Positions 8,941 through 58,455 of a stretch of 64,000 nt of DNA are shown in pieces. Position numbers and translations under genes: made by a program. Location: NCBI GenBank assembly GCA_964566925.1, contig CAZMIZ010000001.1, forward strand, positions 135,248-199,247, written 5' to 3'. The notes under the pieces were generated by a model. It was not told where the DNA came from and did not search any database. It worked only from the letters and a program-made list of their open reading frames with translations. Source of the stretch: an uncultured Gammaproteobacteria bacterium (lineage in GTDB: Bacteria > Patescibacteriota > Microgenomatia > PFEM01 > DATLAM01). Within the stretch, counting starts at the first letter, position 1, and the number at the start of each line of letters is the position of its first letter.

Positions 8941-10382
8941 AAAAGTTTCTAAAATCTTATTGGCTTGTTTTTGTCTTTATCCTGGTTATTTTTCTCCGCC
9001 TGCCTTCATTGTTCGAACCTTTTACCTATGGTGATGAAGGAATTTATCTGACTTTAGGTCAGTCTTGGCGAAAAGGAGCCGTTTTCTATCGAGACATTCA
9101 CGATAACAAGCCACCCCTTTTATACCTCTTGGCTGGAGTTGCCTACAGCTTTGCTAATTATCGATTAATCCTTTTTTTCTGGAGCCTAATCACCGCCTAT
9201 TTCTTCTCCAAACTCGGCCGTTTCCTTTTTAAGAAAAACGGTTGGGCTGTTTTTTCTTCCACCCTTATTTTTGCTATTCTTAGCAGCATCCGCCTTTTTG
9301 AAGGTACTATTGCTAACGCCGAAAATTTTTTAATCGGAACCTCGATTCTTGGTTTCTATTTCCTCTTGACCGCTAAAAAGAATTATCAATTTTTTTTCGC
9401 CGGTCTTCTTTTTTCTCTTTCGACTCTTTTCAAAATCCCGGCGGCTTTTGATTTCGCTGCCGCCGTTACCTTTGGATTTTTGCTATTTATGCAAAACCGA
9501 AGAAATTATTCGCTATTCATTATTCGCTATTCATTATTCGCCCTGGGCTTTTTCCTCCCTATTCTCCTCTCGCTTCTCTACTATGCCTCTCAAAACGCTC
9601 TTAGCCAGTATTTAACCGCTGCTTTTTTTCAAAATATTCCTTACCTTGCCTCCTGGGCACCAGACAAGCCGCAGGCTGGAGGACTACCCATCCCTCTTCT
9701 TGGCCGAGCTCTTGGCATCTTGATTGTCTTTAGCCTTCTTTTTTCTTTAAGGAAAAGGCTTTCCTCTGCCGCCAAACTAACCACTCTCTGGTTTTCTTTT
9801 TCCCTTTTTGCCGCCCTTCTTTCCAGTCGCCCTTACCCTCATTATCTTCTCCAAACAATCCCGCCTTTAACTCTTTCTCTTGGTTTAATTTTGGCCAAAG
9901 AGAAGGAAAAAATTATTTCCCTCACAATGGTCGTCGTTCTCGTCTTCAGCATGGTCATTTTCAATTATTGGCATTACCCAACCGTTTCTTATCTTCAGAA
10001 CTTCTATTCGTTTGCTCTCAACTTAAAAACAAGAGATGACTATTTTGCTTATTTTGGTGGCCATACCCAAGATCTTTATCAGGTCGCCGCCTATCTTAAA
10101 ACCCACACCGAGGCCGAGGAGGAAATCTTTATTTGGAGTAACCATCCTTCGATTTACCCCCTCGCGGAGCGCTCTCCGGTTGGTCGCTATGCCACTGCCT
10201 ATCACATTATTGACTTTAACGGCTACGAGGAGACGATTAAAGCCCTCCAATCCTCTCTTCCTCGATATATTGTCCGCTCTCTGGAAGAAAAAAGAGCCTT
10301 TCCCTCTCTTGAGGCTCTGTTGGCCAACCAATACCTAAAAATAGAGACTGTCGGCCAGTTTGAGATTTACCGTCATCTTTGA
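8907..10382 (+). CDS. GT-C fold glycosyltransferase (ArnT/PMT-like), second paralogue
   Basis: TYGDEGIY ... NKPPLLYLL. Polytopic. Overlaps the previous gene by 34 nt. Confidence 0.7.
   Translation: MVFMAKKENNLKKFLKSYWLVFVFILVIFLRLPSLFEPFTYGDEGIYLTLGQSWRKGAVFYRDIHDNKPPLLYLLAGVAYSFANYRLILFFWSLITAYFFSKLGRFLFKKNGWAVFSSTLIFAILSSIRLFEGTIANAENFLIGTSILGFYFLLTAKKNYQFFFAGLLFSLSTLFKIPAAFDFAAAVTFGFLLFMQNRRNYSLFIIRYSLFALGFFLPILLSLLYYASQNALSQYLTAAFFQNIPYLASWAPDKPQAGGLPIPLLGRALGILIVFSLLFSLRKRLSSAAKLTTLWFSFSLFAALLSSRPYPHYLLQTIPPLTLSLGLILAKEKEKIISLTMVVVLVFSMVIFNYWHYPTVSYLQNFYSFALNLKTRDDYFAYFGGHTQDLYQVAAYLKTHTEAEEEIFIWSNHPSIYPLAERSPVGRYATAYHIIDFNGYEETIKALQSSLPRYIVRSLEEKRAFPSLEALLANQYLKIETVGQFEIYRHL
9507..9541 (+). 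repeat. 7-bp periodic tandem repeat (TATTCGC/TATTCAT x5) inside the GT-C gene
   Basis: Read directly from the sequence. Encodes the YSLFIIRYSLFAL peptide repeat. Confidence 0.8.
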
Positions 10383-20855: not shown

Positions 20856-21424
20856 AAAACTTTCATTTGACCAACTTCGTGGGCAGAAAAAAGATCCCGT
20901 TCTTTCTTAGGAATGGCCAAATGAACCTCGTCTAAGAACATATTCAAACAAATTTTATCTCTTGCTTTTTGGTCGCCTGGTCGGCGGCGGGAGGCAACCA
21001 CTTCAATTAATAAAACCGCTAGCAATCTCGTTAACCAAAGCCGATTTTTAGTAGTCACGATCATTAAATCAATGTCATCTTCCTTATCTGTGTTGGCCAT
21101 GGCCAGAGCGCCTGTGACGGCCACCATTTTGATGGTCGGAATAAACTTCAGCCAATTGGCAACCCGCTGGCCAATCTTTAATTTTTCCCGGCTCCAGCGG
21201 GCCCGCTTTTGACGAAGAGAAACCAACCTCCTTCTTCCTCTTAGATAATAATAGCCTTCCTTTTTAGCAGTTCGGGGAAGTTTCTCTAATGCTTTTTCGA
21301 TATCCGATATCCGATATCCGATATCCGAAAGAAGAAATTGCCAGATTTCTTCTTTTTTCAACGGATAATCAAAAACATCAGCATAGGCAAGAGTGCGAAA
21401 AATTGCCTTTGATAAGGGCTTCAT
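20774..21424 (-). CDS. Pol-beta-superfamily nucleotidyltransferase-domain protein
   Basis: GALAMANTDKEDDIDLMIV fits the hG[GS]x9-13DhD NTase motif. Confidence 0.5.
   Translation of the reverse strand: MKPLSKAIFRTLAYADVFDYPLKKEEIWQFLLSDIGYRISDIEKALEKLPRTAKKEGYYYLRGRRRLVSLRQKRARWSREKLKIGQRVANWLKFIPTIKMVAVTGALAMANTDKEDDIDLMIVTTKNRLWLTRLLAVLLIEVVASRRRPGDQKARDKICLNMFLDEVHLAIPKKERDLFSAHEVGQMKVLWEKDGTYPKFLKANQWVKQYLPNWKP
21301..21328. repeat. heptanucleotide tandem repeat (TATCCGA)x4 inside the NTase-like CDS
   Basis: cgaTATCCGATATCCGATATCCGATATCCGAaag read directly. Confidence 0.85.
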
Positions 21425-38987: not shown

Positions 38988-40213
38988 GAGAGTCCCAAAA
39001 CTATCGTCAATAATAATTGGGTTTGTTGGAGAGTTAGCCAGTAATGATCCACCATGCCTGTTAAGAAAATCGCTAGAAGAGAAATTGCCAGTTGCCAGTT
39101 GCCAGTTGCCAATAGTTTTTTAAAAGTTAAAATTAGAAGCCAAACAAAAATAACTAAACCAACTAGGCCGGTTTCGGCAAGAATTAAAAGGAAAATGTTG
39201 TGAACCGGCTGGAGAAAACGAATCGTTTCTGGTGCTGGCCAATAATAGGATAGCTGAGAGATAAAATTATTCAAACCAACGCCGGTCAGCAGTTGTGGTT
39301 GGACCATCAAGCTGGCCACTTTGGTTGATTGAAACCTTAAATTAAAAGTCTCTTCAGTTGAGAGTTTTGGACCCCAATAGAAAACTCCGCCAAGCAGGGT
39401 CAATAAGAAAACCAAAAAGATCCCCTGGCGAAATCTCTTCTTCTTTTTCCAGAGGCGAAGAACAACCAACAGAAGAATGATTAATAAGCCAACCACCCAG
39501 GTCGAACGAGAAAAGGAAATGGCGATTGCCGCTCCCCCGAAACCAATAGTCAACCATTTTAAAATCTTCCTGCTTGTTAATTCCCTTTTTGGCATTCCCA
39601 TTAAGGCTAGGGAAACCAGGATAAATCCAGCTAAAGCATTCGGGTGAGGAAAAGTAGCATAGGGCCTCATTAAGAGTTGGCCATTAACGATTGCCTTGGC
39701 AATTCCGGGAGTAGCAACGTTAAAGGTCCGCTCCCCCAACCACCAAAAAGAGCCGTTCAAAGATGATTGGTTAATGAATTGAGCTATTGCCAGAAAGGAG
39801 GTGTAAATAATCGGGAAGGGCAATATCTGGCGTAGAGCGGATGGCGTATAGCTATTTTTAGCAACATAAAGGCCCAGAAAGAAGAGCTCGATTATTTTAA
39901 TGAATTTATAAAGGGCGGCACCGGAATTCTGAGCTAAAAGCGAAGTGGTCAGCAAATAAAAAAGGATCGCTCCTACCCACCAAAATTTCCGAATTGTTAA
40001 TTGTAAATTGTTAATTGTCAGCTCGTTTAGCTTCTCTAAAAACCAGGAAACTAAAATTAATCCCACTAAAATATCCGTTAAGTAAAGGGTGGGTGAAAGA
40101 TAATCGATTTTTAATCCTAAAACGTAAGACCATTCTGGCCAGAAGTGACGTCCTAATTGAACAGGAAGAAGAATGATTAAAGCGTAAAAAAACGCTTGAT
40201 GAAGCTTTTTCAT
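38969..40213 (-). CDS. O-antigen ligase/polymerase-family membrane protein (Wzy_C domain)
   Basis: Polytopic, with an FSRSTWVVGLLIILLL-type O-antigen ligase core and a large periplasmic loop. Confidence 0.6.
   Translation of the reverse strand: MKKLHQAFFYALIILLPVQLGRHFWPEWSYVLGLKIDYLSPTLYLTDILVGLILVSWFLEKLNELTINNLQLTIRKFWWVGAILFYLLTTSLLAQNSGAALYKFIKIIELFFLGLYVAKNSYTPSALRQILPFPIIYTSFLAIAQFINQSSLNGSFWWLGERTFNVATPGIAKAIVNGQLLMRPYATFPHPNALAGFILVSLALMGMPKRELTSRKILKWLTIGFGGAAIAISFSRSTWVVGLLIILLLVVLRLWKKKKRFRQGIFLVFLLTLLGGVFYWGPKLSTEETFNLRFQSTKVASLMVQPQLLTGVGLNNFISQLSYYWPAPETIRFLQPVHNIFLLILAETGLVGLVIFVWLLILTFKKLLATGNWQLAISLLAIFLTGMVDHYWLTLQQTQLLLTIVLGLSWANRQ
39085..39111. repeat. heptanucleotide tandem repeat (TTGCCAG)x3.9 inside the O-antigen ligase-like CDS
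   Basis: Read directly. A second 13-14-bp repeat, aattgttaattgt x2, lies near 39990-40020 in the same gene. Confidence 0.85.
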
Positions 40214-46532: not shown

Positions 46533-49500
46533 TTAAAGGATTGGTGAGCCACTACAATCGCCATACGATTTAAAGAGACATTTTTGAGGGCAACCAGGTA
46601 AATAATTACAAGGATCCTCGGGACTGCCAAGAAAACAAGAAATCGTCCCGCAACTACTGACGCCAAAATGGAGATGGGTACCAGTTGAACGGCCTGAATC
46701 ATCCATGATCCCAATTATATCACTCGAAGAAACCTCGTCACCCTCGTTTTTAGGGAAATTGCAGCGGAACTCGTCTTCTAGATGGCCATAAAGGGTATAA
46801 AGATTCTCACGATGCTGGATAATCACGTAACAGCCATAGCCAGAATGGTACCCTTGTTGGGCAATGACCCCTCGAGTAGCCGGGTGGATATCCGTGCAAC
46901 CATCTGGGGGGATGTCAATTCCTTCATGAAATTCACATTCGTGGGGCGGGAGAGGATCAGCCCGCCAGCCGTAATTACTGGAACAATCATGATAACAAGT
47001 GGGCCAGCCAAAGATCCAGGTTTCGCCAGCGGCATTAATACAAACTGGAGGAGAGGAGGAAGAAAGGTTTTTCCCTGATTGGGTTGTACCCATAACAGTT
47101 AAATTATCACAAAGCATCTCTTCCCCTTGGAGATAGTTACTTAGAGGCGGATCTCTGAGGGCCAAATGGATGGTAATGGTTTGACTGCCACCCGGGCTTA
47201 AGGGGCCAAGTTGAGAACACTCTTCTTGGGTCCAGGCGAAGGTATTGGAAACATGAGTACTAGATGGTTGTTGGGTAGGGTCACACGGAGAAAAAGTTGA
47301 GGTGTCTGGGTCGTAGAGCATGATGAGGGAAACGAACCCGGGTTCTTCAAAACGATCAAAGACCTGGATGTTCCCCAGTAAACCGGCTGCTTCATCCTCA
47401 GGATTATAAGAGTAGGTTAAAGTGTAATCAAGGGCGATGATTTCTCCGTTCTGATCAAAGACAGGCGTGACTGTTTTTTCGATCGGTAATTCCGGCGAAA
47501 TAACATGAGATCTAATTGCCTGCTCTACAAAAAAGGCGCTGGTTATGACATAAAGAGTGAATACGGAAAGGAGAGCTAAAAGCCCAATGCCTGCTAGAGT
47601 GAGAATTGAGGCAGAGGTAATTGTCGCGACAATCATAGGAATAGTTTCGTAGAGCCAGTAAGCGACTGCGTCGGGAATAATAAAATTAATGGCGCTAATT
47701 AAACCAGCTTTTAGGGTGGGCCACCACAGAGGTCTGGTGAGGAAGGCGACGTCAATTAAAGTAAATTGGCCTAAATAAAGCGGCCCGGAAAACCAATTCT
47801 GAAGGGCGATTAGGGGTGGCGTGCCAGAGAGAAGATCCATAATTAAAGGGCTGGTTGTGACTATAGGGAAAAGCCAGGGAATAAATCTGCCTAAAAGGGC
47901 AGGGATCCGTCCTAGTTTAGCCAGAAGATTAAGAAATCTAAGAAAGCCTGGGATTTTGCTTAAACCAGTCCTGGCAAAAGGCCACCACCATTCTCGAGTA
48001 GCCCAAGCCCATTGGGCTAGGGCCGGGATGGGAATAGCCCAAAGAGGAATTAAGCCAGCCGTATAGAGAACATAGCCAAGAGCAAGGCCTTTGATGGGGA
48101 AGCGCGCATAAGGATGCTCAGTTAACCAAATAGCTGGTTTACCCACGATGCGCCGAATCCATTTACTGGTAAAATGAGTTGAAGGTTCTCGGAGCCAGGC
48201 AAGCCATCGATCATTTTTGCCAATATCCAGCCAAAATTGATAGAAGTGGCCACTTCCCCCACCAAGAATGATTCCTAGCTGGGGAAACCCAATCATTTCG
48301 CCAACAGCATAACCCAAGACTGTACCAGAAAGAGTATTGAAACTGAAAAAACTCCGAGCGAATTGACCACTAAAGCTAACGGTCATCCGCAGGCCCCTAA
48401 TGGCTGGTGCACCCAAAAATCTTTTTCCAAAAGAGGTTTCGGTTAAGCTTGTCCAAACTTTAGCAAGTTGGCCAAAAGCAAGCCTTTGGGTTAACCGGGC
48501 CACCGTACCCACAGTTAAATCAAGGCCGAGTTTAAGAAGAAGGACTAGGGGACTCCGATCCCAATCTTGTTCCCGCCGCCGGAAAGCCCGACTTAAGCCA
48601 AACCAGAATCTTTTCATAAAAAGACTTTTTGATTTTTGGCTACGGCCGAAGAAATAGTTAGCCCCTCGGCGGAAGGGGGCGGAGCTCGATTGTCCCAACC
48701 AAGCTAAAGGGCTGAAAACTGGTTTCGATTTTCCTGGAGCGTAGAACGCCTCTTTATAGAGGCCCAAACGACCACCAAGACGTCTTTTAACGGCTGTCCA
48801 AAACCGATAGTTAAGTTCAGGAGTGATGTAAATTTTACGAAGAAGCTCACCTTTTTTGAAAGTGTAATCAATGTATTTCAGATGAGCCCATTTTGCTCCT
48901 GGGACTAAAGCTTCCAGTGCTCCTCTAATTGGGTCGATGACGGTCAGGGAGATGGTCCCTCCAATAGGGTTGGTGGCGAAGTATTCGATTTGATTCTTTA
49001 AATAGATTGCTTCTGCGCCAAAGGGGCCCTTTAACGCCTGAATCGTTTGATTAATTGCCCCTTCTTCAGTAGGAATAGCCCAATAAGTAGTTTCCCTTTC
49101 CGGGTGGCCTAAGGGACGGACCTGTATTCGGGGGAGATTATTTTCGTCGACATCAAGAAAAACCTCTTTTGGCAAATTGGGAACCAAAGATTGAAGAAGA
49201 CGACGGTTGATCGGAATGACGGGATTAAGGTAGCGCGAGCCATGACTGAGAAGACTTTTCTTGATCTGGCCGATAAGCTTTGCTCTCTCGTTAGGAGTAA
49301 GGTTAAGAGGTTTAAAAATTTTTTTAACCGCATCTTCAACTCCACTTGCTTCCTCAAAAAGACGAATGGTTAAATCTTCGGCTGTTTTTTGAGCTTCAGT
49401 CTGGGCGGCAGCCATGCTACCTGTTTTTCCTAAAGTTTCGGTGTGCGTTTTATAGAACTGATCATTAACTCTTTGAGCATAATTTCTCCCTAATTTGATG

Positions 49501-50216
49501 GCCAGACGGCGGTGTCTTTCTGGGTAAAAAAGAAGGTCGGGAGTTGCCTCAAGCGCCCAATAAGCCTGGGTTGAATATTTTGTGGCCAGCTCATTAAAAT
49601 GAAGCAAGGGTCCAAGTTCCTCTTGGAGGGCAATTTTTTTAGCTTGTGATAATCCCTTCCAGGCTGATAGCCGGGGCTGGCCAGCCTCATCTAGAAGGTT
49701 TTCTTTTCTAAGGAGATGATAGACACGTTCTTGAATAAGTTCATTTTCTGGGATTTCTGGCTCAACCGGATCAGTAAAATCGGACAGGGCGGCTGATCTA
49801 GTTTTTTCTCTTTGGAAAAAATCTGTTTCGCCAGTTTTTTCCACCCCTTCCCAGCGGTGTTGGTGAGCTTTCTCAACCTGCTCCTCAACGGTCGATTCGC
49901 CAGCCTTTTTTAATTCCCCCTCAATTTTTTTAGCTAGGTGTTTCTGGTGGGCTTCAATCAGATTGCTCAGCTCAGGAGGAAGAGGGGGAAGACTGGGCAA
50001 GAACCCCTTTTTAAAAGAGGCGTCAAGGGCTTTTTCTAATTCTGGAAGAAACTCTGGTTTAATGACCGTAATCGGAGCTTTAATCCCCAATTCACGGGCC
50101 CAGAGGGCGAGATTGGCTTTTGCCTTATTTTCAATTTCTTTAGGAACATCTTTTAGCTGAAGACCTCTGATTAATCGCCAAAGGCGATAGTATTTTCCTA
50201 AGATTGCTTCATCCAT
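46533..50216 (-). CDS. giant polytopic membrane protein with C-terminal Cys-rich region and M23 peptidase domain
   Basis: 1227 aa. A soluble N-terminal region of about 600 aa, about 10 TM helices, then HEGIDIP ... HSGYGCYVIIQH ... GRSTGTHLHFG, which are M23 HxxxD/HxH motifs. Confidence 0.7.
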   Translation of the reverse strand: MDEAILGKYYRLWRLIRGLQLKDVPKEIENKAKANLALWARELGIKAPITVIKPEFLPELEKALDASFKKGFLPSLPPLPPELSNLIEAHQKHLAKKIEGELKKAGESTVEEQVEKAHQHRWEGVEKTGETDFFQREKTRSAALSDFTDPVEPEIPENELIQERVYHLLRKENLLDEAGQPRLSAWKGLSQAKKIALQEELGPLLHFNELATKYSTQAYWALEATPDLLFYPERHRRLAIKLGRNYAQRVNDQFYKTHTETLGKTGSMAAAQTEAQKTAEDLTIRLFEEASGVEDAVKKIFKPLNLTPNERAKLIGQIKKSLLSHGSRYLNPVIPINRRLLQSLVPNLPKEVFLDVDENNLPRIQVRPLGHPERETTYWAIPTEEGAINQTIQALKGPFGAEAIYLKNQIEYFATNPIGGTISLTVIDPIRGALEALVPGAKWAHLKYIDYTFKKGELLRKIYITPELNYRFWTAVKRRLGGRLGLYKEAFYAPGKSKPVFSPLAWLGQSSSAPFRRGANYFFGRSQKSKSLFMKRFWFGLSRAFRRREQDWDRSPLVLLLKLGLDLTVGTVARLTQRLAFGQLAKVWTSLTETSFGKRFLGAPAIRGLRMTVSFSGQFARSFFSFNTLSGTVLGYAVGEMIGFPQLGIILGGGSGHFYQFWLDIGKNDRWLAWLREPSTHFTSKWIRRIVGKPAIWLTEHPYARFPIKGLALGYVLYTAGLIPLWAIPIPALAQWAWATREWWWPFARTGLSKIPGFLRFLNLLAKLGRIPALLGRFIPWLFPIVTTSPLIMDLLSGTPPLIALQNWFSGPLYLGQFTLIDVAFLTRPLWWPTLKAGLISAINFIIPDAVAYWLYETIPMIVATITSASILTLAGIGLLALLSVFTLYVITSAFFVEQAIRSHVISPELPIEKTVTPVFDQNGEIIALDYTLTYSYNPEDEAAGLLGNIQVFDRFEEPGFVSLIMLYDPDTSTFSPCDPTQQPSSTHVSNTFAWTQEECSQLGPLSPGGSQTITIHLALRDPPLSNYLQGEEMLCDNLTVMGTTQSGKNLSSSSPPVCINAAGETWIFGWPTCYHDCSSNYGWRADPLPPHECEFHEGIDIPPDGCTDIHPATRGVIAQQGYHSGYGCYVIIQHRENLYTLYGHLEDEFRCNFPKNEGDEVSSSDIIGIMDDSGRSTGTHLHFGVSSCGTISCFLGSPEDPCNYLPGCPQKCLFKSYGDCSGSPIL

Positions 50217-50251: not shown

Positions 50252-52177
50252 TTAAACTCCCCTAGCTTCGGCTGTTTCTGGGAATTTTTCTGGCTCAGAA
50301 GGAGTTTTCGCTTCTGAAGTCTGGACTGCTCCTGGCGCTTCTTTTGCGGCCTCAATTGCTTTTCTTTTGATTTCTCTCATCGCCAACAGCTCTTCTGGCT
50401 TAGAAGTAATCAATTGGTGTTCGTTGGGGGAGGCCACGACTCGGATCGCCACGTGGTTGGGTCCAGCAAAAAAGAGACCTTCGCCGATGTCCGCTGCTAA
50501 CAGAAGGTGTTTTTCTCCTTCAGAGAGATAGAAAACCTCGGCTACTTGGTCAATGGCGGCGGCCGACATTTTCATCAAGGTTTGGATTGAGGAGTTTTGG
50601 ACAATCGCCTTGCCGTACTCAGAAGCAAGAAAATCCTCAGCGTCCTGAGTGATGGTAGTTAAACCAAGATAATATTTCCTTGCCCTTTTAGCAATTGAAT
50701 AAAGGAAGTTAGCCGAATCCGGATACTTCATTAGATACCAAGCCTCGTCAACCACCAAAATCCGTTTCTTCATTTCTTTTTTGATTTTCGTCCAGATATA
50801 GTCGAGGATAATAAACATGGCAATTGGCCGTAAAGTATCTTCCAAGTCTTTAAGAGAAAAGACAGTAAAGGGGCTTTTAATATCTAGATTGGAGTGTTGA
50901 TCAAAAATGCCGGCGAAACTGCCTTTAACGAACTTTTCAATCCGATCAGCCAGGGAGATCGCTTCTGGTTCTTCCATCCCGCGCAGAGCCTTGTAGAGAT
51001 CCTCCATTAATGGCGGCTCATTTTTCTGGGTAGCTGGGTCCGGGGTGATCCCTTTCATTTTGTAAGTTAAAACTAGAGCTCGATCTAGAGTAGCCTCTTC
51101 GCTAGGCGAAAGCTGCCCCATAATTACTTTAAAAAGTGAATGAAGAGAAAGAATTTTCAGACCGAGTTCGTTTTCGCCTTCTTCATAAACAGCGGAAAGA
51201 TCAAAAGGGTTGATTTTGGCTTGGCTGCCAAAACCAAAACTAATAAATTCCCCACCCACCGCTTCAGCTAAGGGCTGATATTCGGCTTCAGGATCAATAA
51301 TGAGAATTTCACTATCAAACATCAGGGAGCGGAGGGCTTCTAGTTTAACCAGGTAAGATTTACCGGAGCCAGATTTGCCAAAAACAACCGCGTTGGCGTT
51401 TTCCATGGTGAAGCGATCAAAGATAATCAGCGAATCATTGTGCTCGTTAATGCCGTACATGATTCCCTCATTGGCGGTAAGCTCGCTTGAGGTAAAAGGA
51501 AAAGTGGTGGCCAAAGAGGTTGTGTCCATGTTCCGGGTGATCATCAGCCGATCATAACAAGTAGGCAGGGTAGCTTTGAAGCCCTCTTCCATCTGAAGAG
51601 TGGCTTTTTTAGAAATAATTAAGAGCGAACCTAAGGTTGATTCGACTTGTTTAGAAACCTGGTCGAGTTCTTCTAAGGTTCCAGCCGGGATGGTGATGTA
51701 AAGGCCGAATTGGAAAAAACGCTCCGCCCCTTTAACTAGCTGTTCTTGCAGTTTCCGGGCGTCTTCTAGTTTTGCTTTAGTGGCAGGATCAACAATTCTT
51801 CCTCTTTGGGTATCTGATTGGATTTCGGCTTCCATTTCACCAATTTTACGCCGCAGCTCATCTAAAATTGATCTCCCTTCAACCGGATAGACATACATCG
51901 AAATATCCAATGAGTGATCAAAATTGATTAAAGGGGCGAGCCAATTGGCGGAAACAAAGCGGGGATAGCCAGCCACGAAAAGGGTCCGGAAAAAAGTATT
52001 GCCGATTTTAACGTGATTAAAGTCCACCTCTAAAGCTGGCGGAGCAATCAAGTCCTGAATTTGGACCATTCCTTTGCCCAGGCTTTCCGTGGGAGGCAGC
52101 TTTCTCTCTCCATTAGGAGGGGTTCCGGCTGACTGGCCTTTTGGAGCGGTTTTGGTTTTTAGGAAAGGTAAGCGCAT
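50252..52177 (-). CDS. VirB4/TrbE-family type IV secretion ATPase (ATPase core)
   Basis: Walker A VVFGKSGSGKSY, Walker B RILVVDEAWYL, a TTITQDAEDF motif, and the N-terminal CagE/TrbE/VirB domain start FFRTLFVAGYP. Confidence 0.8.
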   Translation of the reverse strand: MRLPFLKTKTAPKGQSAGTPPNGERKLPPTESLGKGMVQIQDLIAPPALEVDFNHVKIGNTFFRTLFVAGYPRFVSANWLAPLINFDHSLDISMYVYPVEGRSILDELRRKIGEMEAEIQSDTQRGRIVDPATKAKLEDARKLQEQLVKGAERFFQFGLYITIPAGTLEELDQVSKQVESTLGSLLIISKKATLQMEEGFKATLPTCYDRLMITRNMDTTSLATTFPFTSSELTANEGIMYGINEHNDSLIIFDRFTMENANAVVFGKSGSGKSYLVKLEALRSLMFDSEILIIDPEAEYQPLAEAVGGEFISFGFGSQAKINPFDLSAVYEEGENELGLKILSLHSLFKVIMGQLSPSEEATLDRALVLTYKMKGITPDPATQKNEPPLMEDLYKALRGMEEPEAISLADRIEKFVKGSFAGIFDQHSNLDIKSPFTVFSLKDLEDTLRPIAMFIILDYIWTKIKKEMKKRILVVDEAWYLMKYPDSANFLYSIAKRARKYYLGLTTITQDAEDFLASEYGKAIVQNSSIQTLMKMSAAAIDQVAEVFYLSEGEKHLLLAADIGEGLFFAGPNHVAIRVVASPNEHQLITSKPEELLAMREIKRKAIEAAKEAPGAVQTSEAKTPSEPEKFPETAEARGV

Positions 52178-52180
52178 TGT

Positions 52181-53062
52181 TTATCTTTTTTTAACTGTTT
52201 TAATTAAATTGTCAATCTGCCGCTGAAGGGCCTCGCCTTCCAGAGGGGGTTGACCACTGGCCGGCGGCTCCCTTTTTTCTGGTTCAGAAGAAGGGTTGGG
52301 TGAAGATGGGGTTGGTTGAGGCGAAGGAGCTGGGGGTGTTGGGCTTAATGGTTGAGGCGGAGGTGATGATTCAGGCGAGGGAGCTTCTAAAGCTGGCTCC
52401 ACTAAAGGGGTTTTGTATTCAGAGGCAGCGGTAATTTTTTGTCCTTGAGTTTCCGGGTTATAAATAGAGAAGAAGAGCTCAATTAATTCCTGGCTGCTTA
52501 GCTGATGAGTTCTTAGACCTAATCGGCTGAGGAGGCGGATCAGGTGATCTCTTTTGGGGTAAAGATTGGTTTTGGCTCGCTCAAGGATATAGTCTTTAGG
52601 AAAAGGAAGGCCCTTTTTCTTTTTAAAAATGGAAGTGGCTGCTTTAGTGGCGCCTAGCTCCAGAGCAGTCATCGGAATGACAATATAGAACTTTTTATCC
52701 AAAACTTCATTTTGCTTCACGGTTTCTGCAACGAAGGCTCGATATTTTTGGATCTGTTCAGCCAGGAGGGGTTCCTTTTTTTTCTTTTCTTGTTCCTCCA
52801 AGAGCTTCAGATAGTTGGAAATATCTTTTTTAATGGAACGAATCACAATTTGGATCGGAAAGGTAAGTGAATTAAGAAGGCCAGCGTAAGCATAGATGGT
52901 GGCGTCTTGCTCTTTTTCCGAAAGCAAACCAAAATTGATGGCAGTCGTCGCCAAGACCAGACAGACACCACCGTCTTTAAGGACCACCAGGTCATCTTGA
53001 ATATCCTCAATATCCAAATGCTCTTGACTAGTCGCTCGAATAGGAATTTTGGTAGGATCCAT
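52181..53062 (-). CDS. VirB4 N-terminal-domain-like protein with Pro-rich tail (in frame with the downstream ATPase ORF across one TAA)
   Basis: DLVVLKDGGVCLVLATTAINFGLLSEKEQDATIYAYAGLLNSL resembles the N-terminal region of Gram-positive VirB4 homologues. Its stop TAA (52181-52183) and the ATG of the next ORF (52175-52177) are separated by one codon in the same frame. Confidence 0.4.
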   Translation of the reverse strand: MDPTKIPIRATSQEHLDIEDIQDDLVVLKDGGVCLVLATTAINFGLLSEKEQDATIYAYAGLLNSLTFPIQIVIRSIKKDISNYLKLLEEQEKKKKEPLLAEQIQKYRAFVAETVKQNEVLDKKFYIVIPMTALELGATKAATSIFKKKKGLPFPKDYILERAKTNLYPKRDHLIRLLSRLGLRTHQLSSQELIELFFSIYNPETQGQKITAASEYKTPLVEPALEAPSPESSPPPQPLSPTPPAPSPQPTPSSPNPSSEPEKREPPASGQPPLEGEALQRQIDNLIKTVKKR

Positions 53063-53063
53063 A

Positions 53064-53112
53064 ATTCTAGAATTTCTAATATCTAATTTCTAATCAATTT
53101 CTAATGATCAAT
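53064..53112. repeat. array of TTCTAAT-type short repeats, inverted relative to the ATTAG repeats at 53521-53552, bracketing the four-helix-bundle gene
   Basis: gaatttctaat atctaatttctaat caatttctaat on the left, and aattaggttaattagagattaggtc on the right (reverse complement of ctaat x3). Confidence 0.6.
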
Positions 53113-53144
53113 TCCTAAATTAAGCTAATTAATGTAATGTTTTA

Positions 53145-53519
53145 TTACTTTTTCTTTAGTTTATTTATTATCGAATTAAAAATTAAGTTTAGCTCTTTAG
53201 CTTCTTGCCATAATGTTTTTGCCTCTTCCTTTAGTTCTGGGACAGCAATAGGAATCATTCTTAACCAATGTTTTGACTCTCTTGATTCCTTTTTACATAT
53301 ACCGATTTTATGGCCAAAGTCTCGTTTAGACTCAGCGTCGTCGGCCTCACAGTAGTTAGCTCCAACACTGGTTCCTGCTTTAACAAGTTGAGTTATTAAC
53401 GGGGTCGTTATCGGCATCTTGGGTATTCTATTGGCAAACTTAATAATATTTTCGCCAAACCTGGCGGTTCTCTCTTCTAAATCGAATTTTTTACTTTTAG
53501 TTATTTTGTTATTAGTCAT
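53145..53519 (-). CDS. four-helix-bundle protein (23S rRNA intervening-sequence protein / Avd-like family)
   Basis: ARFGENIIKF ... QLVKAGTSVGANYCEADDAESKRDFGHKIGICKKESRESKHWLRM matches the TIGR02436/PF05635 family. Confidence 0.75.
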   Translation of the reverse strand: MTNNKITKSKKFDLEERTARFGENIIKFANRIPKMPITTPLITQLVKAGTSVGANYCEADDAESKRDFGHKIGICKKESRESKHWLRMIPIAVPELKEEAKTLWQEAKELNLIFNSIINKLKKK

Positions 53520-53552
53520 TTTTTAGAGCAATTAGGTTAATTAGAGATTAGG

Positions 53553-54581
53553 TCAATTCTGCTTGGCTTGAATTTCTATTGGCTGAGTAATTTCCCCTTT
53601 AAGAATAATTTGGATTAGGTCAAAGTGGAGGCCTTCCTTTTCCACCTCGATTTCGTAAGTCCCGTTTTTTAAAGGACTGGCGATTCTGAATTGGCCGAGC
53701 TTGTTGGTTTTTAAGGCTCGGACAGGCGAACCTTTCTCGTCTCTGATTTCAATGATGGCATTTTCAACCAGCTTGCCCTCTTGATCAATGACCATGCCCA
53801 CTAAAATATTGGGACGGTCTGGTGGAGCGGGAATGGGGAGATCAGGGGAAAGTCTGGGTTTAACCGTAGGCGATTTTACCCGGGCTGGTTTTTTGATTGG
53901 GGCAGCTTTTTTAACTACTTTCGGCTCTGGGGCCGGTTGGGGCATGGTTTTTTCGGCTGCCTTGGTGGGCGCTTTTTGGGGTTCAGCTAAGGGAAGGTGA
54001 AGTTTCCGGATTTTAATTCCCGGTTTTACCTCTTCAGCCAGGGCTGGCTTGACATTCGGGGTTAAGGTGGATGGGAGAGAAACCAGCTGGAAGAGATTGC
54101 CGATTTGGTTAAGGGCGCCCTCTTCCTGTTGATCTAGCGGACTGGATGGGGTAGTGGTGGGCAGTGTTTTGAGGTATTCCTCGAGCCGGGCTTGATCAAC
54201 CGGTGTGGCGGGGGCTTGTTTCTTTACTTTCGGCCGAGGGACAACCTTAAAGAATTCCGGCTTGACCGGTGTTTTCTTCCAAATAAACTGGGTGGGTGAA
54301 TAGATGGCTTTTGAAAAGGCGATAAACCAGCGGTCAAGTGGCCGTTCCTCAATCGGCATAAAAGCAAAAGCAACTCCGCTGAGACCAGAAAAGATGACTA
54401 GCGGCCATTTAAAATAAGAAGCCAAGGGGGCAGCGTAAAAAAGAAGAGCGACGAGACAGCCACCTGCCAGAAACCCAAACTGTTTAAGGGTCATGTCGCC
54501 GACCAGCCGAAACTGGTAGGCGGTGATATGTTGCGGGACAGGATGTTGTTCCATAAGCGCTTCGCGCAGGACAGAGCGCAC
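53553..54581 (-). CDS. PrgI/VirB3-like membrane protein with Pro/Lys-rich linker and C-terminal CarbopepD_reg-like beta domain
   Basis: N-terminal ITAYQFRLVGDMTLKQFGFLAGG plus two TM helices resembles the PrgI family. The C-terminal ILVGMVIDQEGKLVENAIIEIRDEKGSPV ... NGTYEIEVEKEG is transthyretin/CarbopepD_reg-like. GTG start. Confidence 0.4.
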   Translation of the reverse strand: MRSVLREALMEQHPVPQHITAYQFRLVGDMTLKQFGFLAGGCLVALLFYAAPLASYFKWPLVIFSGLSGVAFAFMPIEERPLDRWFIAFSKAIYSPTQFIWKKTPVKPEFFKVVPRPKVKKQAPATPVDQARLEEYLKTLPTTTPSSPLDQQEEGALNQIGNLFQLVSLPSTLTPNVKPALAEEVKPGIKIRKLHLPLAEPQKAPTKAAEKTMPQPAPEPKVVKKAAPIKKPARVKSPTVKPRLSPDLPIPAPPDRPNILVGMVIDQEGKLVENAIIEIRDEKGSPVRALKTNKLGQFRIASPLKNGTYEIEVEKEGLHFDLIQIILKGEITQPIEIQAKQN

Positions 54582-54626
54582 AGAACATAGAAATAGGCTT
54601 TATATGCTATGCGCTTATGCCTTAGA

Positions 54627-54998
54627 CTAAGATTTTTCTAAGTTCTTCATTAATGTTGTTAAAATTTTCATTAATTCGGTATTCCTGGTAAGAAAACCCT
54701 TAATCATTTGATTATCAAACTTTTTCGTTTCAAACATAACATCCAGCCAATAATCTGCCTCAAAGCTGGATCCTCGGGAAATTCCAAGAAACTGACGATA
54801 GCTTTTAGAATAGTAGCGACCATAACCTTCGGCAATATTCGCACCAATAGAAGACAGCGCCCTTATGAGTTGACCAGTAAGAATTTCAGCAACTCTATCT
54901 TTTCGTTGGATAGAGAAATATTTAATGGCATCAACTGTTAACAGTTTTGCCTTTTGGTAAGCAATTAAGTTTTTATAGGAAGCGGGCAGTTTTCGCAT
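54627..54998 (-). CDS. four-helix-bundle protein (23S rRNA intervening-sequence protein / Avd-like family), second copy
   Basis: YQKAKLLTVDAIKYF ... GQLIRALSSIGANIAEGYGRYYSKSYRQFLGISRGSSFEADYWL matches the canonical family signature. Confidence 0.75.
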   Translation of the reverse strand: MRKLPASYKNLIAYQKAKLLTVDAIKYFSIQRKDRVAEILTGQLIRALSSIGANIAEGYGRYYSKSYRQFLGISRGSSFEADYWLDVMFETKKFDNQMIKGFLTRNTELMKILTTLMKNLEKS

Positions 54999-55146
54999 TT
55001 TTCTATCTACTTTGCGCTATAAACTAAGTTTTATGGACTATGCGCTATGGACTATGATACTATCTCCTTAGGATTGAATTCAACCGTCTCAAAAGCGATC
55101 ATTTTACAGCCAAACTAGAACAGATTTTAAGATTGTGTTATGATAA

Positions 55147-58100
55147 TTGTTAGGAGAAGAAATGCCTGAGGAAAGTCAAGAAAAAGGAATGATGCCAGGA
55201 GAAAAAAGTTTTGGCCGTCCTCATCACCCAGAGGCGAAGCCCACCATGGGTCTCCCAGGCCAGCCTGAAAAAGGGGAAAGATACTTTGCTACCTTGAACG
55301 AATTTAGAGAGGCTCTTGAAGGAATTCCCGATGGGTTTAAAAAGAAAGCGAATCGTTTAAGAAGGAATCTTCGCTCAGCCATAAAAAAGAGTGAAGAAGA
55401 AAAGGTCGGGGATATTTTAAAAGAAGTAGACGGATTAGTAGAGAAAGAGCCAAAGCTGGTCCAGTGGTCAGAATTGATGGAACAAGAGGCCACCGGGGAA
55501 GTCCAACCAGGGGAATCAAGCGAAAAGTCGGTCGGAGAGATAGTCGAAGAGCCGCCCCAAAAAGCGAAACCAGAAGACATTCGGATGGTTCCGGACGCAA
55601 TCTCTGACGAAAGAATGGAAGACGATGAAGAGGTCCTAGTTGATCCGCGAACAGAAAAAATGAAGTTCGTTGAGAGATATCCTCTGTGGGTGGAAGAAAC
55701 AACCAGAAGCGTTGCCGAAATTCGGGGTCAATATTTCAGATTTTTAGCCGGCATTGGTGCCCGCCAGCCAGTTCCAGGTCAAGGAATTAATGATTCTGAA
55801 TGGGAAGAGATTGCCAGATATACTGCTGAAATAGATTCAATTATTCGGAAAATTGGGAGAAAGGAGAGAGGAGAAAGAACGGCTGAAGAAAAAGGAGAGC
55901 TTAAGAGGGCACAAAAGCTTAAACGGATGGCTGGCGCTTATTACCATGAGCTTGAGTTTTATCACCGATTTTGGTACGGAGAGGAATCAGGAATCGGTAA
56001 GGAAGTGAAAAGATCTAAAGAGGGATCAAGACTTCTTTTGATTGACCAAATGGCGGTTCTTTTTACTATTCCTGAAGTGGCGAAAGCCTTTAAAGAAGAA
56101 AAGGGCTATAAAAGTGATGCTGAGTTAGTTGATGAGGTTAATGATCCCTATGGCTGGCGAAGACTGGGACATCACCTTCGCCGTTATTCGTGCACCCCGA
56201 TGTATCGGGACGCTTATGAGGCGGGGGCGAAGACAGCTAAACCTGGTGAACCGATTAAACCGGGGTTTGGTCTTAGCTACGAGTATAGTCTTTTTGGCAT
56301 TTACTTTACTGGGAGATGGGCGGAAAAAAACAATGCCAAATACGCCAAAGTTCTTCGAGTAGAAGATGCTGATGGCAATCTGATTATTGATCTGGGGAAA
56401 TTAGGAGCCACCTATGATATGTGGACTACCCCTGCCAGACTAGAGTTGTATGTTCTTTTTTGGGAGCATTTAGGAAAAAGAAACCAAATTAGACTCTCTG
56501 CTGGGAGGGGAAGAGAATGGCTAAACAAGCACGAGGAGCAGCTTTATTCCAAAAAAGCAAGCGAAGGGCTGCGAGATCTTCTTTGGAATTATCGAGATAA
56601 AGAAAAAGTCCTTAGAGACCGGATTGGCGAAATTGATAAGAAAAAGGAATCAGAGGGGTTATCCGCTGAAGACGAAGAAGAGCTTCAACAGCTCCAATCT
56701 AGCCTTCAAGACCTTCTAGCGGAGCAGGAAAGGCTAGTTGGATTCTCAAATGAGGAGATTAAAGAGTTTCGGGAATTACTAATGAAAAAAGCAATTAATA
56801 GAGAACAACTAAGAGAAGATGAAGAGGAGAGCCTGGCAGAGCTTAAAAAGACAATCGGAAACGTGATGCTTAGAAATATGATTAATCGAGACTTAGGTTT
56901 TGACCCCTCTGAAAGAGACTTTAATCTGATTGCTATTTTTAGCGATCCCTTGAGTCGGCACGAAGAACTTACGCCCAATGATATTTTAACCAACCTCTTA
57001 GTGGATGTCCGGAGGATGGAACAAACCCAGGACGCTTTAACAGCCGGAAAAGAATGCTTTATCGCTAAACCTTCATTTGAAATGATTCTTGACATGGAGT
57101 CGGAGGTATATGCTCATCTTGGTTATTTTCCTTGGTTAAGGGAGAGACAGATATTTGCCCTGAGAGAGCTTGTTTCTAGATTATATTTAGCCGGGGTTAT
57201 TAACACGATCAGGTTAAGCGGTACTCACCTTTTTGAAGAAGAGAGTAAAAAAATTTATGATAGTTTGAAGGCAAAGGCTAATGTAGGTCTTCACGCCGAA
57301 GGTTTGAAAGCCACTTATGGAATAGATTTTACTGATCCCGACCTCAAAGACGGCGCATCGCTTGCTGAAGTAATCAGATGTCTTAAGCTAGTTCATAGAG
57401 GGAGGTTAAATGCAATTTATGAACAAAGAAGAGAGCAATGGGTGATCAATGTTTTAGAGAAAGGGGTGGCAGCAGAAGCCCACGAGAAGGTGCGATTTCT
57501 TAGCCGATTCAGATTTTCTGATTATGTCTCTTTTGAAGCGCGGATTATTGAAGAACCAGTGCTTAACGCTATGGGGTGGACCAGGGAAGAAAGTCTAGAG
57601 AAAGAAAAAGAACGGTTTCGAACTCGCGACCTTTGGTTAGCCAAAAAAGGCCAACTTCCTGGCGATGACGGCGTCTTTATATTTAGCCGTAATCAGGCGT
57701 TAAAACCGGGTTGGGAGAGGTTCGCGAGAGAGAAAGGGGAAAGTGATCGAAGGAAAGAAGACGGCAGGTGGATTTATGGTTATCGCTACGAAACCGATAA
57801 ATTTGAAAAGGTAGGCTATGTAACCGACGAAAACCACGTTTATCGAACTATCGCCTGGGAGGATCCAATCCAGAAAAGCTTATTTGAAGTGGAACAGCTG
57901 ATTTATTCCAAAAATTACGAGATTTTGAGTAAATATATTGATGAACACTCCCCGGAGATAATTGATGATCCCAACGAATGGTTAACCCCTCCTCAAAGGC
58001 AGAATCTGATTAAAGATCACCTCCGCCGGATCAGTATTGATCCTGACCGAGCCGAAGTTTTAATGAAGAAATATTCTTGCACCAATGCCGATTGCTGGAT

Positions 58101-58455
58101 TTGGACGGCCAAAAGGTTGACCTTTGGACGTCTGGCCCCCGAACTTATAGCTAAAATCCCGATTGTTGGTCCTCTTGCCAGAAATGTTAATATTGCCGGC
58201 ATTGGACTTTCTGGCTGGATTGGTGCGGTAGCCCAATTTGGCCTTCCCAGGGTCGCCACCTATTTGACCGGTAATCCTATCGCGATCGGCACCGGGGTTT
58301 ATTTTCTCCAGTTAGGGCTTATCTCTTTTGTTACTAGTCCTCTGGTGCGAAGAATGGCGTGGCTTAGCACCATTCCAGGGACAAATTTTAGGTTAAAAGG
58401 CCTCCTCCCAATTTATTGGGAGCCTAAAGGAAAGGTAAAAGAATATGAGGGTTAA
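55147..58455 (+). CDS. large hypothetical protein with C-terminal TM hairpin (divergent from the T4SS-like genes)
   Basis: 1102 aa, Glu/Lys-rich, with no recognisable catalytic motifs. Two C-terminal hydrophobic helices. Confidence 0.5.
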   Translation: MLGEEMPEESQEKGMMPGEKSFGRPHHPEAKPTMGLPGQPEKGERYFATLNEFREALEGIPDGFKKKANRLRRNLRSAIKKSEEEKVGDILKEVDGLVEKEPKLVQWSELMEQEATGEVQPGESSEKSVGEIVEEPPQKAKPEDIRMVPDAISDERMEDDEEVLVDPRTEKMKFVERYPLWVEETTRSVAEIRGQYFRFLAGIGARQPVPGQGINDSEWEEIARYTAEIDSIIRKIGRKERGERTAEEKGELKRAQKLKRMAGAYYHELEFYHRFWYGEESGIGKEVKRSKEGSRLLLIDQMAVLFTIPEVAKAFKEEKGYKSDAELVDEVNDPYGWRRLGHHLRRYSCTPMYRDAYEAGAKTAKPGEPIKPGFGLSYEYSLFGIYFTGRWAEKNNAKYAKVLRVEDADGNLIIDLGKLGATYDMWTTPARLELYVLFWEHLGKRNQIRLSAGRGREWLNKHEEQLYSKKASEGLRDLLWNYRDKEKVLRDRIGEIDKKKESEGLSAEDEEELQQLQSSLQDLLAEQERLVGFSNEEIKEFRELLMKKAINREQLREDEEESLAELKKTIGNVMLRNMINRDLGFDPSERDFNLIAIFSDPLSRHEELTPNDILTNLLVDVRRMEQTQDALTAGKECFIAKPSFEMILDMESEVYAHLGYFPWLRERQIFALRELVSRLYLAGVINTIRLSGTHLFEEESKKIYDSLKAKANVGLHAEGLKATYGIDFTDPDLKDGASLAEVIRCLKLVHRGRLNAIYEQRREQWVINVLEKGVAAEAHEKVRFLSRFRFSDYVSFEARIIEEPVLNAMGWTREESLEKEKERFRTRDLWLAKKGQLPGDDGVFIFSRNQALKPGWERFAREKGESDRRKEDGRWIYGYRYETDKFEKVGYVTDENHVYRTIAWEDPIQKSLFEVEQLIYSKNYEILSKYIDEHSPEIIDDPNEWLTPPQRQNLIKDHLRRISIDPDRAEVLMKKYSCTNADCWIWTAKRLTFGRLAPELIAKIPIVGPLARNVNIAGIGLSGWIGAVAQFGLPRVATYLTGNPIAIGTGVYFLQLGLISFVTSPLVRRMAWLSTIPGTNFRLKGLLPIYWEPKGKVKEYEG

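Follow-up and report, generated by a model that had tools for sequence, protein, structure and literature searches.

Two PF05635 helix-bundle genes between opposed short-repeat arrays in a type IV secretion-like operon of a Microgenomates bacterium

The two helix-bundle genes and their proteins

The 64,000-nucleotide stretch analyzed here (contig CAZMIZ010000001.1 of assembly GCA_964566925.1; G+C content, 43%), hereafter called the window, carries an operon resembling those of type IV secretion systems (T4SS), in which two small genes, HB1 and HB2, encode four-helix-bundle proteins of the PF05635 family. In our view, both genes are probably modules of the rRNA intervening sequence (IVS) type, each made of an open reading frame (ORF) of ~120 amino acids (aa) set between two arrays of a module-specific repeat (core of 5 to 6 nt, period of ~7 to 10 nt) that are opposite in orientation, HB1 being an insertion and HB2 a resident. 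The best 80 relatives of the window VirB4 protein all belong to metagenome-assembled genomes of the candidate phyla radiation (CPR), with 65 to 85% identity, and the source lineage is Microgenomates/Patescibacteria. By rising coordinate, the genes on the minus strand are those for an M23 protein, VirB4, a TrsD/TraC-like protein, HB1, a PrgI-like protein, and HB2, with HB1 and HB2 both in the same sense as the PrgI/TraC-like/VirB4 operon. The features are as follows, arrays detected by Tandem Repeats Finder being marked TRF.

53063-53118, minus strand: 3' arm of the HB1 cassette, ATTAG-type units in transcript sense (TTCTAAT repeats on the plus strand), abutting the trsD-like ATG with a gap of 0 nt
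53145-53519, minus strand: HB1 ORF, 124 aa, four-helix bundle (PF05635/TIGR02436)
53520-53561, minus strand: 5' arm of the HB1 cassette, CTAAT-type units, overlapping the final two prgI-like codons and the TGA stop
54555-54626, minus strand: 3' flank of HB2, sense CATAG-type cores followed by antisense CTATG-type cores, with a 10-nt deletion relative to locus L030
54627-54998, minus strand: HB2 ORF, 123 aa, four-helix bundle (PF05635/TIGR02436)
54999-55063, minus strand: 5' arm of HB2, CATAGNN heptamer array up to the start codon (TRF, 55032-55056, period 7)
55054-55083, minus strand: promoter-like box TTGAAT-N18-TATCAT upstream of the HB2 module (consensus scan)
53553-54554, minus strand: prgI-like (VirB3-like) gene with a CarboxypepD_reg-like C-terminal domain (Pfam PF12666, PF13620)
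53553-53555, minus strand: TGA stop of the prgI-like gene
52181-53062, minus strand: trsD/TraC-like gene, downstream neighbor of HB1 (NCBIfam TrsD and VirB4 N-terminal matches; PF26593 TraC-like in homologues)
53060-53062, minus strand: ATG start of the trsD-like gene
50252-52177, minus strand: VirB4-type ATPase gene (Pfam PF19044, PF12846, PF03135)
46533-50216, minus strand: gene for a membrane/M23-peptidase protein, 1,227 aa

A preliminary description of this stretch had recognized two rRNA-IVS/Avd-like four-helix-bundle genes in a T4SS-like locus, and profile searches agree with it. Both proteins exceed the cutoffs of PF05635 (HB1, E value of 4.7e-11 and 43.3 bits; HB2, 7.1e-23 and 81.3 bits; gathering cutoff, 33.8) and of TIGR02436 (HB1, 3e-18 and 66 bits; HB2, 6e-23 and 81 bits; cutoff, 24); they share 30% identity across 61 aa and are the only PF05635-type genes in the window. 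An AlphaFold2 model of HB1, made as a monomer (pLDDT of 92), consists of four helices, and Foldseek returned 2RLD (BT_0352) as its best match (TM-score of 0.77 to 0.88), followed by 2GSC (Xcc0516; 0.72 to 0.83); HB2 was matched to the same two structures by sequence. An alignment of 33 sequences from both subfamilies shows no variation at S51, G53, A54, N55, and E58, and the family motif G..R...S...N..E (PMC3936711) is present, with Arg in HB2 and Lys at the equivalent position of HB1. While the HB2 subfamily is small (124 proteins detected), ~8,000 homologues of HB1 are detectable, hundreds of them at 72 to 84% identity and from Microgenomates, Parcubacteria/Paceibacterota, and Levybacteria. 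The HB1-type ORF is under strong purifying selection, as judged from nonsynonymous divergence (pN) of ~0.1 to 0.2, saturated synonymous divergence (pS), and dN/dS of ~0.1, which argues that the copies are old and that the protein matters. Close homologues located among ordinary protein genes number in the thousands, and the earlier statement that the family is normally found in rRNA IVSs or diversity-generating retroelements (DGRs) was thus too narrow.

DGRs are common in CPR bacteria, and the HB proteins share with the DGR accessory protein Avd the same four-helix-bundle fold and superfamily (HB1 model against 4DWL and 8UB7, TM-score of 0.64 to 0.72). That HB1 and HB2 would themselves be Avd proteins of a DGR is nevertheless highly improbable. 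Identity to Avd is 18%, and the Avd structures rank after 2RLD and 2GSC, which are non-DGR proteins. The neighbors are T4SS-like, the PADLOC run on the window gave no match, and within the 64 kb there is neither a YxDD reverse transcriptase ORF, with or without an upstream SQ motif, nor a direct repeat of at least 40 nt resembling a template repeat/variable repeat pair, so that the Avd/DGR reading does not hold within the window. DGR RNA function requires the pairing of segments that flank the template up- and downstream, and the Avd pentamer binds structured RNA (10.1101/2023.10.23.563531); unlike in DGRs, the arrays described here enclose the HB gene itself and not a template repeat.

The HB1 cassette, its insertion site, and its relatives

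Both flanks of HB1 are built of short repeats. On the plus strand, four CTAAT lie at 53076-53105 and ATTAG units at 53511-53551, the two flanks being mutually inverted, and TRF reports a degenerate array at 53071-53118 (periods of 7, 11, 14, and 25; AATTTCT/AATTTCTAAT). The 3' arm fits the consensus 3' arm ...ATTAGAAATTAGAAATT of ~64 HB1-type cassettes. The TRF and inverted-repeat evidence thus upholds the initial observation that HB1 is bracketed by mutually inverted TTCTAAT and ATTAG repeats, and the arms can pair: in the predicted fold of the minus-strand RNA of 53055-53565, a long-range stem encloses the whole HB1 ORF in both the minimum free energy (MFE) and the centroid structure (z score of -2.6), with 34 flank-to-flank pairs, the 3' arm (53063-53118) pairing with 53520-53561.

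For a comparison of orthologous loci, we gathered 80 related loci (L001 to L080) with the window VirB4-type ATPase as the anchor. The genes prgI, trsD, and virB4 are contiguous in ~74 of the 80, and in none of them is prgI separated from trsD by another gene, HB1 being unique among ~75. At such empty junctions (L030, L010, L013, and L014), a spacer of 0 to 4 nt separates the stop of prgI from the ATG of trsD, unless the two overlap as ATGA. In the window (where TrsD has its closest homologue at 73% identity), exactly 490 nt separate them, and PrgI is longer by two codons, its TGA stop being furnished by the AATTGACC end of the element. Judged by this comparison, the HB1 module (~53063-53561) is a lineage-specific insertion of ~490 bp placed exactly at the prgI/trsD stop/start junction. 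It is sense oriented and carries no recognizable promoter of its own and hence would be read through from the operon. Two other loci (L183:4534-4953 and L184:2265-2684) hold another HB gene in the prgI/trsD junction, of 139 aa and 28% identity to HB1, with purine-rich heptamers upstream, and by its sequence this gene hit that junction independently.

HB1-type units are widespread in CPR genomes. From metagenomes, we took 80 loci with close HB1 homologues; the comparison spanned ~70 unique cassettes, and 64 sequences were aligned. Nearly all 80 loci have 3 to 5 CTAAT-core units upstream, reaching into the start codon, and 3 to 7 ATTAG-core units downstream. In the 64-sequence alignment, conservation sets in abruptly at AAATT(G/A)ACCTAATT and ends abruptly at ATTAGAAATT, giving a unit of ~490 to 500 bp with AAATT at both ends, the nonrepetitive inner segment of the arms being CTAATCAAATCCCAAT/ATTGGGATTTGATTAG. 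Neighboring genes vary by locus and the unit usually occupies the entire stop-to-start spacer; in a Paceibacterota example, the same CTAAT/ATTAG arms lie between the gene for a 2,279-aa VWA protein and pilin genes. The upstream neighbor is codirectional in 65 of 69 cases, against a baseline of 74% (P = 1e-5), and the downstream neighbor in 52 of 65, which is not significant. ORF-less hairpin forms also occur (L145:990-1117 and L027:17288-17410). The unit does not encode a transposase or recombinase, and no such gene recurs beside it, although an enzyme encoded elsewhere might act in trans.

Two side observations concern the same unit. A solo ATTAG array of five units, of the HB1-type 3' arm, stands between the trsD stop and the virB4 ATG at L010:5543-5590 and looks like the footprint of a lost cassette. 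Two near-identical strains, L081 and L083, are 100% identical over the first 2,400 nt and differ by a cluster of substitutions at 2430-2500, covering the end of the upstream gene and the outer 5' arm; one of these changes produces an additional CTAAT, and a second one brings back a base pair to the 3' arm.

The complementarity of the flanks was assessed against 243 other small genes of the same loci (mean score of 14.5, 95th percentile of 20, and maximum of 23). The two window copies score 21 and 23, i.e., at the ~95th to 99th control percentile, with duplex z scores of -2.7 and -1.7; taken alone, this signal is marginal and suggestive only. Together with the abundance of short-period arrays genome-wide in these bacteria, such values could point to mere AT-rich, low-complexity intergenic sequence that is self-complementary by accident. 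The comparative data refute this chance reading, to which we assign practically no likelihood. Flank complementarity lies above the control 95th percentile in 91% of 69 HB1-type cassettes (P = 1e-35) and, for the 17 other HB genes in VirB4 loci, which belong to diverse subfamilies, in 12 (P = 3e-9); a given ORF subfamily keeps its arms in dozens of contexts that are unrelated, and the HB2 arms are conserved across six lineages. Moreover, the short-period (~7-nt) arrays, of which we counted 281 in 1.35 Mb of Microgenomates loci, are 26-fold enriched beside HB genes (P = 2e-30). The comparative data thus make the flank-pairing signal unambiguous. In single-sequence MFE folds, HB1-type units have a median of 36 flank-to-flank pairs, versus 4.5 for the control genes, with at least 15 pairs in 89% and 20%, respectively, and the outer pairs of the stems extend into coding sequence.

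The HB2 module at the head of the operon

The inverted arms of HB2 (54575-54598 and 54995-55018; 24 nt, 79% complementary) include the ATAGAAA (~54588) and TTTCTAT (~55000) motifs by which this copy had been said to be bracketed. The CTATGCGCT motif, in turn, forms direct repeats at 54607-54615 and 55038-55046, the first of which had been misplaced at 54596. Each of the five other lineages examined (L030 plus the P0251, P0264, P0247, and P0262 loci) has its HB2 orthologue (68 to 82% identity) immediately upstream of prgI/traC-like/virB4, and the genes beyond HB2 on the upstream side vary by lineage (ParE/PhD, HepT/MNT, a DOT1-like methyltransferase, and others). The six lineages, including the window, share the succession of a promoter-like box GTTGAATTCAATCC...GATAGTAT, CATAGNN heptamers, the ORF, NNCTATG heptamers, and the prgI ATG, and the cores of these arrays are constant in the six lineages with variable 2-nt spacers. 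The prgI start motif cttATGGAACAACATCC is kept across all six as well; by sequence, the true start of the prgI-like gene is most likely the ATG at 54552-54554 and not the GTG at 54581 of the mechanical ORF list. The promoter-like box may serve as the promoter of HB2 and of the prgI operon; in HB-less loci, no box of the HB2 type was found upstream of prgI, bar 5 chance-like matches among 64.

Because every other lineage examined has HB2 at the syntenic position upstream of prgI, this gene is not a fresh insertion and, as far as synteny can tell, is a long-term resident and conserved operon leader in one Microgenomates clade. The preliminary description had suggested cassette-like insertion for both copies and had added that genes conserved syntenically in all relatives would be stable residents instead. 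Its suggestion holds for HB1, whose site is empty in ~74 relatives and whose unit occurs at many sites, and gives way to residence for HB2, which is syntenic within its clade. Probably, the HB2 module (54555-55063, or up to 55083 with the promoter-like box) began as HB1 did and later became an operon leader.

This residence raises the alternative of a regulator, in which a ring-shaped HB protein would read tandem repeats, in the manner of TRAP on RNA or of omega/ParG-like proteins on DNA heptads, and control translation of its own and the next gene, HB2 in particular being a dedicated regulator of the T4SS-like operon. The constant position of the HB2 subfamily upstream of prgI with its conserved box and arrays, the constancy of the 5-nt cores against variable 2-nt spacers, the start codon lying inside the array, and the strong purifying selection on the ORF are all consistent with it, as is the slower evolution of HB2 relative to its neighbors (68 to 82% identity, versus 46% for PrgI and 63% for TrsD between the window and L183). 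Moreover, orphan arrays, i.e., those not beside an HB gene, occur directly before start codons, as do the TAACTGA repeats of Beggiatoaceae (PMC4679880), and an arm motif recurs in an orphan array of the same locus in 6 of 111 pairs, compared with 2% across loci (P = 0.024). However, HB1-type units adjoin unrelated genes without a functional theme, most related T4SS-like loci lack HB2 and indeed any HB gene, binding data in the family come from DGR members only, and the Coxiella IVS protein is seemingly not made and its gene is decaying (PMC4990558). We therefore regard regulation as a possible but rather unlikely account of the two modules.

The surroundings of HB2 gave further observations. 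Unrelated HB subfamilies take its place in L044, L045, and L032, and an ORF-less ATTGTT/AACAAT pair lies directly upstream of prgI in L025, the position of HB2 in the window. Toxin-antitoxin pairs (PhD/ParE and MNT/HepT) lie directly upstream of the HB2-type module in two lineages (L174:2307-2893 and L177:2065-2908), which suggests that the 5' border of this operon is a variable region. In the window, a divergent plus-strand orphan ORF of 1,102 aa (55147-58455) adjoins the HB2 module; Pfam gave no match for it, and none of the 80 related loci contains a homologue.

Arrays in other genomes, proposed model, and known systems

Arm motifs differ by HB subfamily (ATTGTT/AACAAT, GTAGACAG/CTGTCTAC, TGACAAT/TTGTCA, CTAGTG/CACTAG, and others), and the best match of a 5' arm is its own 3' arm or a 3' arm of the same subfamily. 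In Geminocystis, an HB gene lies between parA-like and parB genes and is flanked by GGGAAAA/TTTTCCC arrays (duplex of -80 kcal/mol; z score of -8.8), and in Chondrinema (Bacteroidota), another stands between the adaptor and permease genes of a resistance-nodulation-division (RND) system, with CAGTNNN heptamers. The arms are GGGAACA (four units) and CTGTTCC (seven units) in Nostoc C052 and GGGTGTA and CTACACC in Calothrix, and heptamer arms also flank an HB gene between cmr2 and cmr3 on a Picosynechococcus plasmid and one between cas6 and cas4 on an Anabaena 90 plasmid. In the parA-like/parB, RND adaptor/permease, cmr2/cmr3, and cas6/cas4 wedges of cultured bacteria (plasmids L172, L173, L189, and L190, i.e., NZ_AP014824.1, NZ_CP111046.1, NZ_CP016476.1, and NC_019429.1), all HB genes are sense oriented and heptamer flanked. 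Judged from these gene and repeat arrangements, a PF05635 ORF between inverted arrays is an architecture shared by CPR bacteria, Cyanobacteria, and Bacteroidota; in Oscillatoria, Gemmatirosa, and Nostoc PCC 7120, the arrays on both sides are direct and not inverted.

Arrays also occur on their own. Many orphan arrays sit at prgI-trsD-virB4 stop/start junctions just before the next ATG, with a motif that differs per lineage (e.g., L037:8981-9014, L018:9183-9212, L044:9125-9158, L057:8795-8824, and L026:5939-5970), and ORF-less inverted heptamer pairs are found at such junctions as well (L025:7254-7352, L007:9201-9304, L066:9807-9915, L027:5920-6008, and L050:9110-9240). Within long ORFs of the window, perfect or near-perfect heptamer arrays lie at 39085-39111, 39992-40018, 21298-21328, and 9505-9539 (motifs TTGCCAG, AATTGTT, CGATATC, and ATTATTC), AATTGTT resembling the HB arms of L022, L024, and L037. 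The arrays at 39085-39111 and 39992-40018 were considered as the arms of an element and rejected, being noncomplementary and located within a membrane-protein ORF.

We propose a model in which the module would be transcribed together with the host operon, its two arrays pairing as a long imperfect duplex around the ORF and its start codon. By analogy with the rRNA IVSs of Coxiella and Leptospira, for which this was shown by experiment, the duplex would be a substrate of RNase III, and cutting or insulation of the transcript at the junction would make the insertion tolerable. The HB protein is strongly conserved and related to the RNA-binding Avd pentamer, and it would most likely read the repeat units of its own module.

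Several observations weigh against this model or narrow it. RNAalifold on 50 aligned cassettes gave no consensus closing helix, the registers being different; the number of units, the spacer length, and the register vary among elements, and variant units are not mirrored between the arms but run in one 5'-to-3' order in both. Wobble pairs are not in excess among the arm mismatches (G:T, 83; A:C, 103), which fits DNA-level symmetry or motif recognition and not selection on an RNA helix. Since the stem is not positionally conserved and G:U pairs are not in excess, a purely RNA-structural reading is not established; the IVS-stem analogy made earlier is a good one in that the Coxiella 23S IVS shares the anatomy. 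Constant cores with varying spacers, number, and register and an unmirrored order are as expected if a multimeric protein recognized a repeated motif. Avd, the one characterized relative, is a pentamer that binds structured RNA. Folding of the flanks as RNA, proposed with that analogy, closes the ORF for HB1 and not for the window copy of HB2, which at MFE has no closing stem, 0 long-range pairs, and a local hairpin in its 3' flank (54570-54621); its 3' arm is shorter by the 10 nt deleted relative to L030, and the orthologues in L030, L174, and L183 fold with 33 to 45 long-range pairs. Moreover, 90% of the short-period arrays lie away from HB genes, and single direct arrays are numerous, so that the arrays cannot simply be taken as cassette ends. 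Finally, synonymous sites between cassettes are saturated, so that recent mobility is not demonstrated, and no target-site duplication could be defined from 64 junctions, at which the palindromic terminal AATT/AAATT fits either such a duplication or part of the repeat.

The missing wobble excess and positional consensus helix would in turn be expected of a DNA-level mobile element, in which the arrays would be terminal inverted repeats (TIRs) with subterminal sites, as in Tn7, Mu, or CACTA-like elements, to which the HB protein or a trans-acting recombinase would bind; pairing at the RNA level would then be a by-product. Sharp boundaries with AAATT at both ends, the many different insertion contexts, the existence of derivatives resembling miniature inverted-repeat transposable elements (MITEs) without an ORF and of solo ends, and the independent hit of the same junction by an unrelated HB subfamily (L183) all point in this direction. 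Nevertheless, such an element would lack any transposase or recombinase encoded within it or consistently adjacent, no catalytic activity is known for PF05635, a target-site duplication is not recognizable, and the saturation of synonymous sites speaks against recent bursts. Moreover, the sense bias relative to the upstream gene is not needed by a DNA transposon, except for expression of the ORF. On balance, a DNA element appears doubtful to us, and we retain the IVS-type module as the more probable account of HB1 and HB2.

The Coxiella 23S IVS is 428 to 444 nt long, has a 28-bp terminal stem and an S23p ORF in sense, and contains three tandem GACAGAT heptamers with a degenerate fourth before the ATG, in strain-variable copy number, the RNase III cut coinciding with the start of the first heptamer (PMC4990558). 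PF05635 ORFs are also reported inside CPR rRNA insertions (10.1101/2024.02.27.582315). Like the rRNA IVSs of Leptospira, Coxiella, Xanthomonas, and Brucella, the modules are ~0.45 to 0.5 kb long with a PF05635 ORF in sense with the host transcript; they have complementary termini around the ORF (the 34 pairs of HB1, and for HB2 those of L030, L174, and L183 but not of the window copy), a poor or absent Shine-Dalgarno sequence, ORF-less versions, and, as in Coxiella, heptamer-type tandem repeats that immediately precede the start of the ORF. Sporadic presence among relatives is likewise true of HB1, whereas HB2 is not sporadic within its clade. Unlike rRNA IVSs, the modules stand at the stop/start junction of protein genes in an operon and not in an rRNA helix (23S helices 9, 25, and 45, or 16S); the window contains no rRNA, Rfam giving tRNA-Cys only, and one of its copies, HB2, is a stably inherited operon leader. 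Their arms are arrays of short cores with variable spacers in place of the single near-perfect 28-bp stem of Coxiella, and their ORF is under strong purifying selection in contrast to the decaying one of Coxiella. By analogy of anatomy, the modules are the same kind of object as the Coxiella IVS in another host context.

Similar genes have been reported between cmr3 and cmr2 and between cas6 and cas4 under the name 23S_rRNA_IVP and called cas associated (Zhang & Ye 2013, PMC3936711; PMC10910872). Our data confirm, in the Picosynechococcus and Anabaena plasmids, that a PF05635 gene is wedged between genes of such operons. These reports propose a functional link to CRISPR-Cas, but the same wedge occurs in T4SS-like, par, RND, and many other operons, which argues for a context-independent module.

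Cyanobacterial short tandemly repeated repetitive (STRR) sequences are intergenic tandem heptamer repeats. Comparable repeats are the G-rich heptamers of Xanthomonas and Nostoc (PMC4692102) and the TAACTGA repeats of Beggiatoaceae, Cyanobacteria, and Bacteroidetes, which lie before start codons (PMC4679880). Our arrays resemble all of these in their tandem 7-nt units, intergenic location often just before a start, lineage-specific motif, and variable copy number; they differ by forming inverted pairs around a PF05635 ORF, with the 26-fold enrichment given above. A link with PF05635 is absent from the reports on these repeats in the literature searched, in which PF05635 genes outside rRNA are likewise not linked with inverted repeat arrays. 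With MITEs and with repetitive extragenic palindromic (REP) sequences and bacterial interspersed mosaic elements (BIMEs), the modules share short palindromic intergenic units after stops, many copies, and ORF-less forms, and with MITEs and TIR transposons they share terminal inverted repeats with defined ends. Unlike MITEs and REP/BIME sequences, the full unit carries a conserved nontransposase ORF and defines no target-site duplication, and no RAYT-like or transposase partner was identified for it. An integron gene cassette was also considered and is ruled out by the solitary modules, the arrays on both sides, and the absence of an integrase nearby.

Beyond the two window copies, a broader idea, which we put forward only tentatively, is that PF05635 proteins would be sequence-specific readers of tandem, mostly heptamer, arrays and that protein and arrays together would form a widespread mobile or domesticated module of operon junctions. 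If true, this idea would unite ORF-bearing rRNA IVSs, intergenic heptamers (STRR, TAACTGA, and G-rich), cas-associated IVP genes, and Avd. What the S23p/IVS protein does and how rRNA IVSs arose have been standing questions since 1990 to 1993, and the intergenic heptamers of cyanobacteria, Beggiatoaceae, and xanthomonads are likewise without explanation. From the present comparison, the ORF-bearing IVS is one case of a general module at ordinary operon stop/start junctions in distant phyla, which comes with ORF-less and solo-array derivatives. Caution is thus advised before such genes are read as functional partners of their host operons (cas, T4SS, par, or RND). The question becomes directly testable, with each HB protein against its own repeat and RNase III against the arms.

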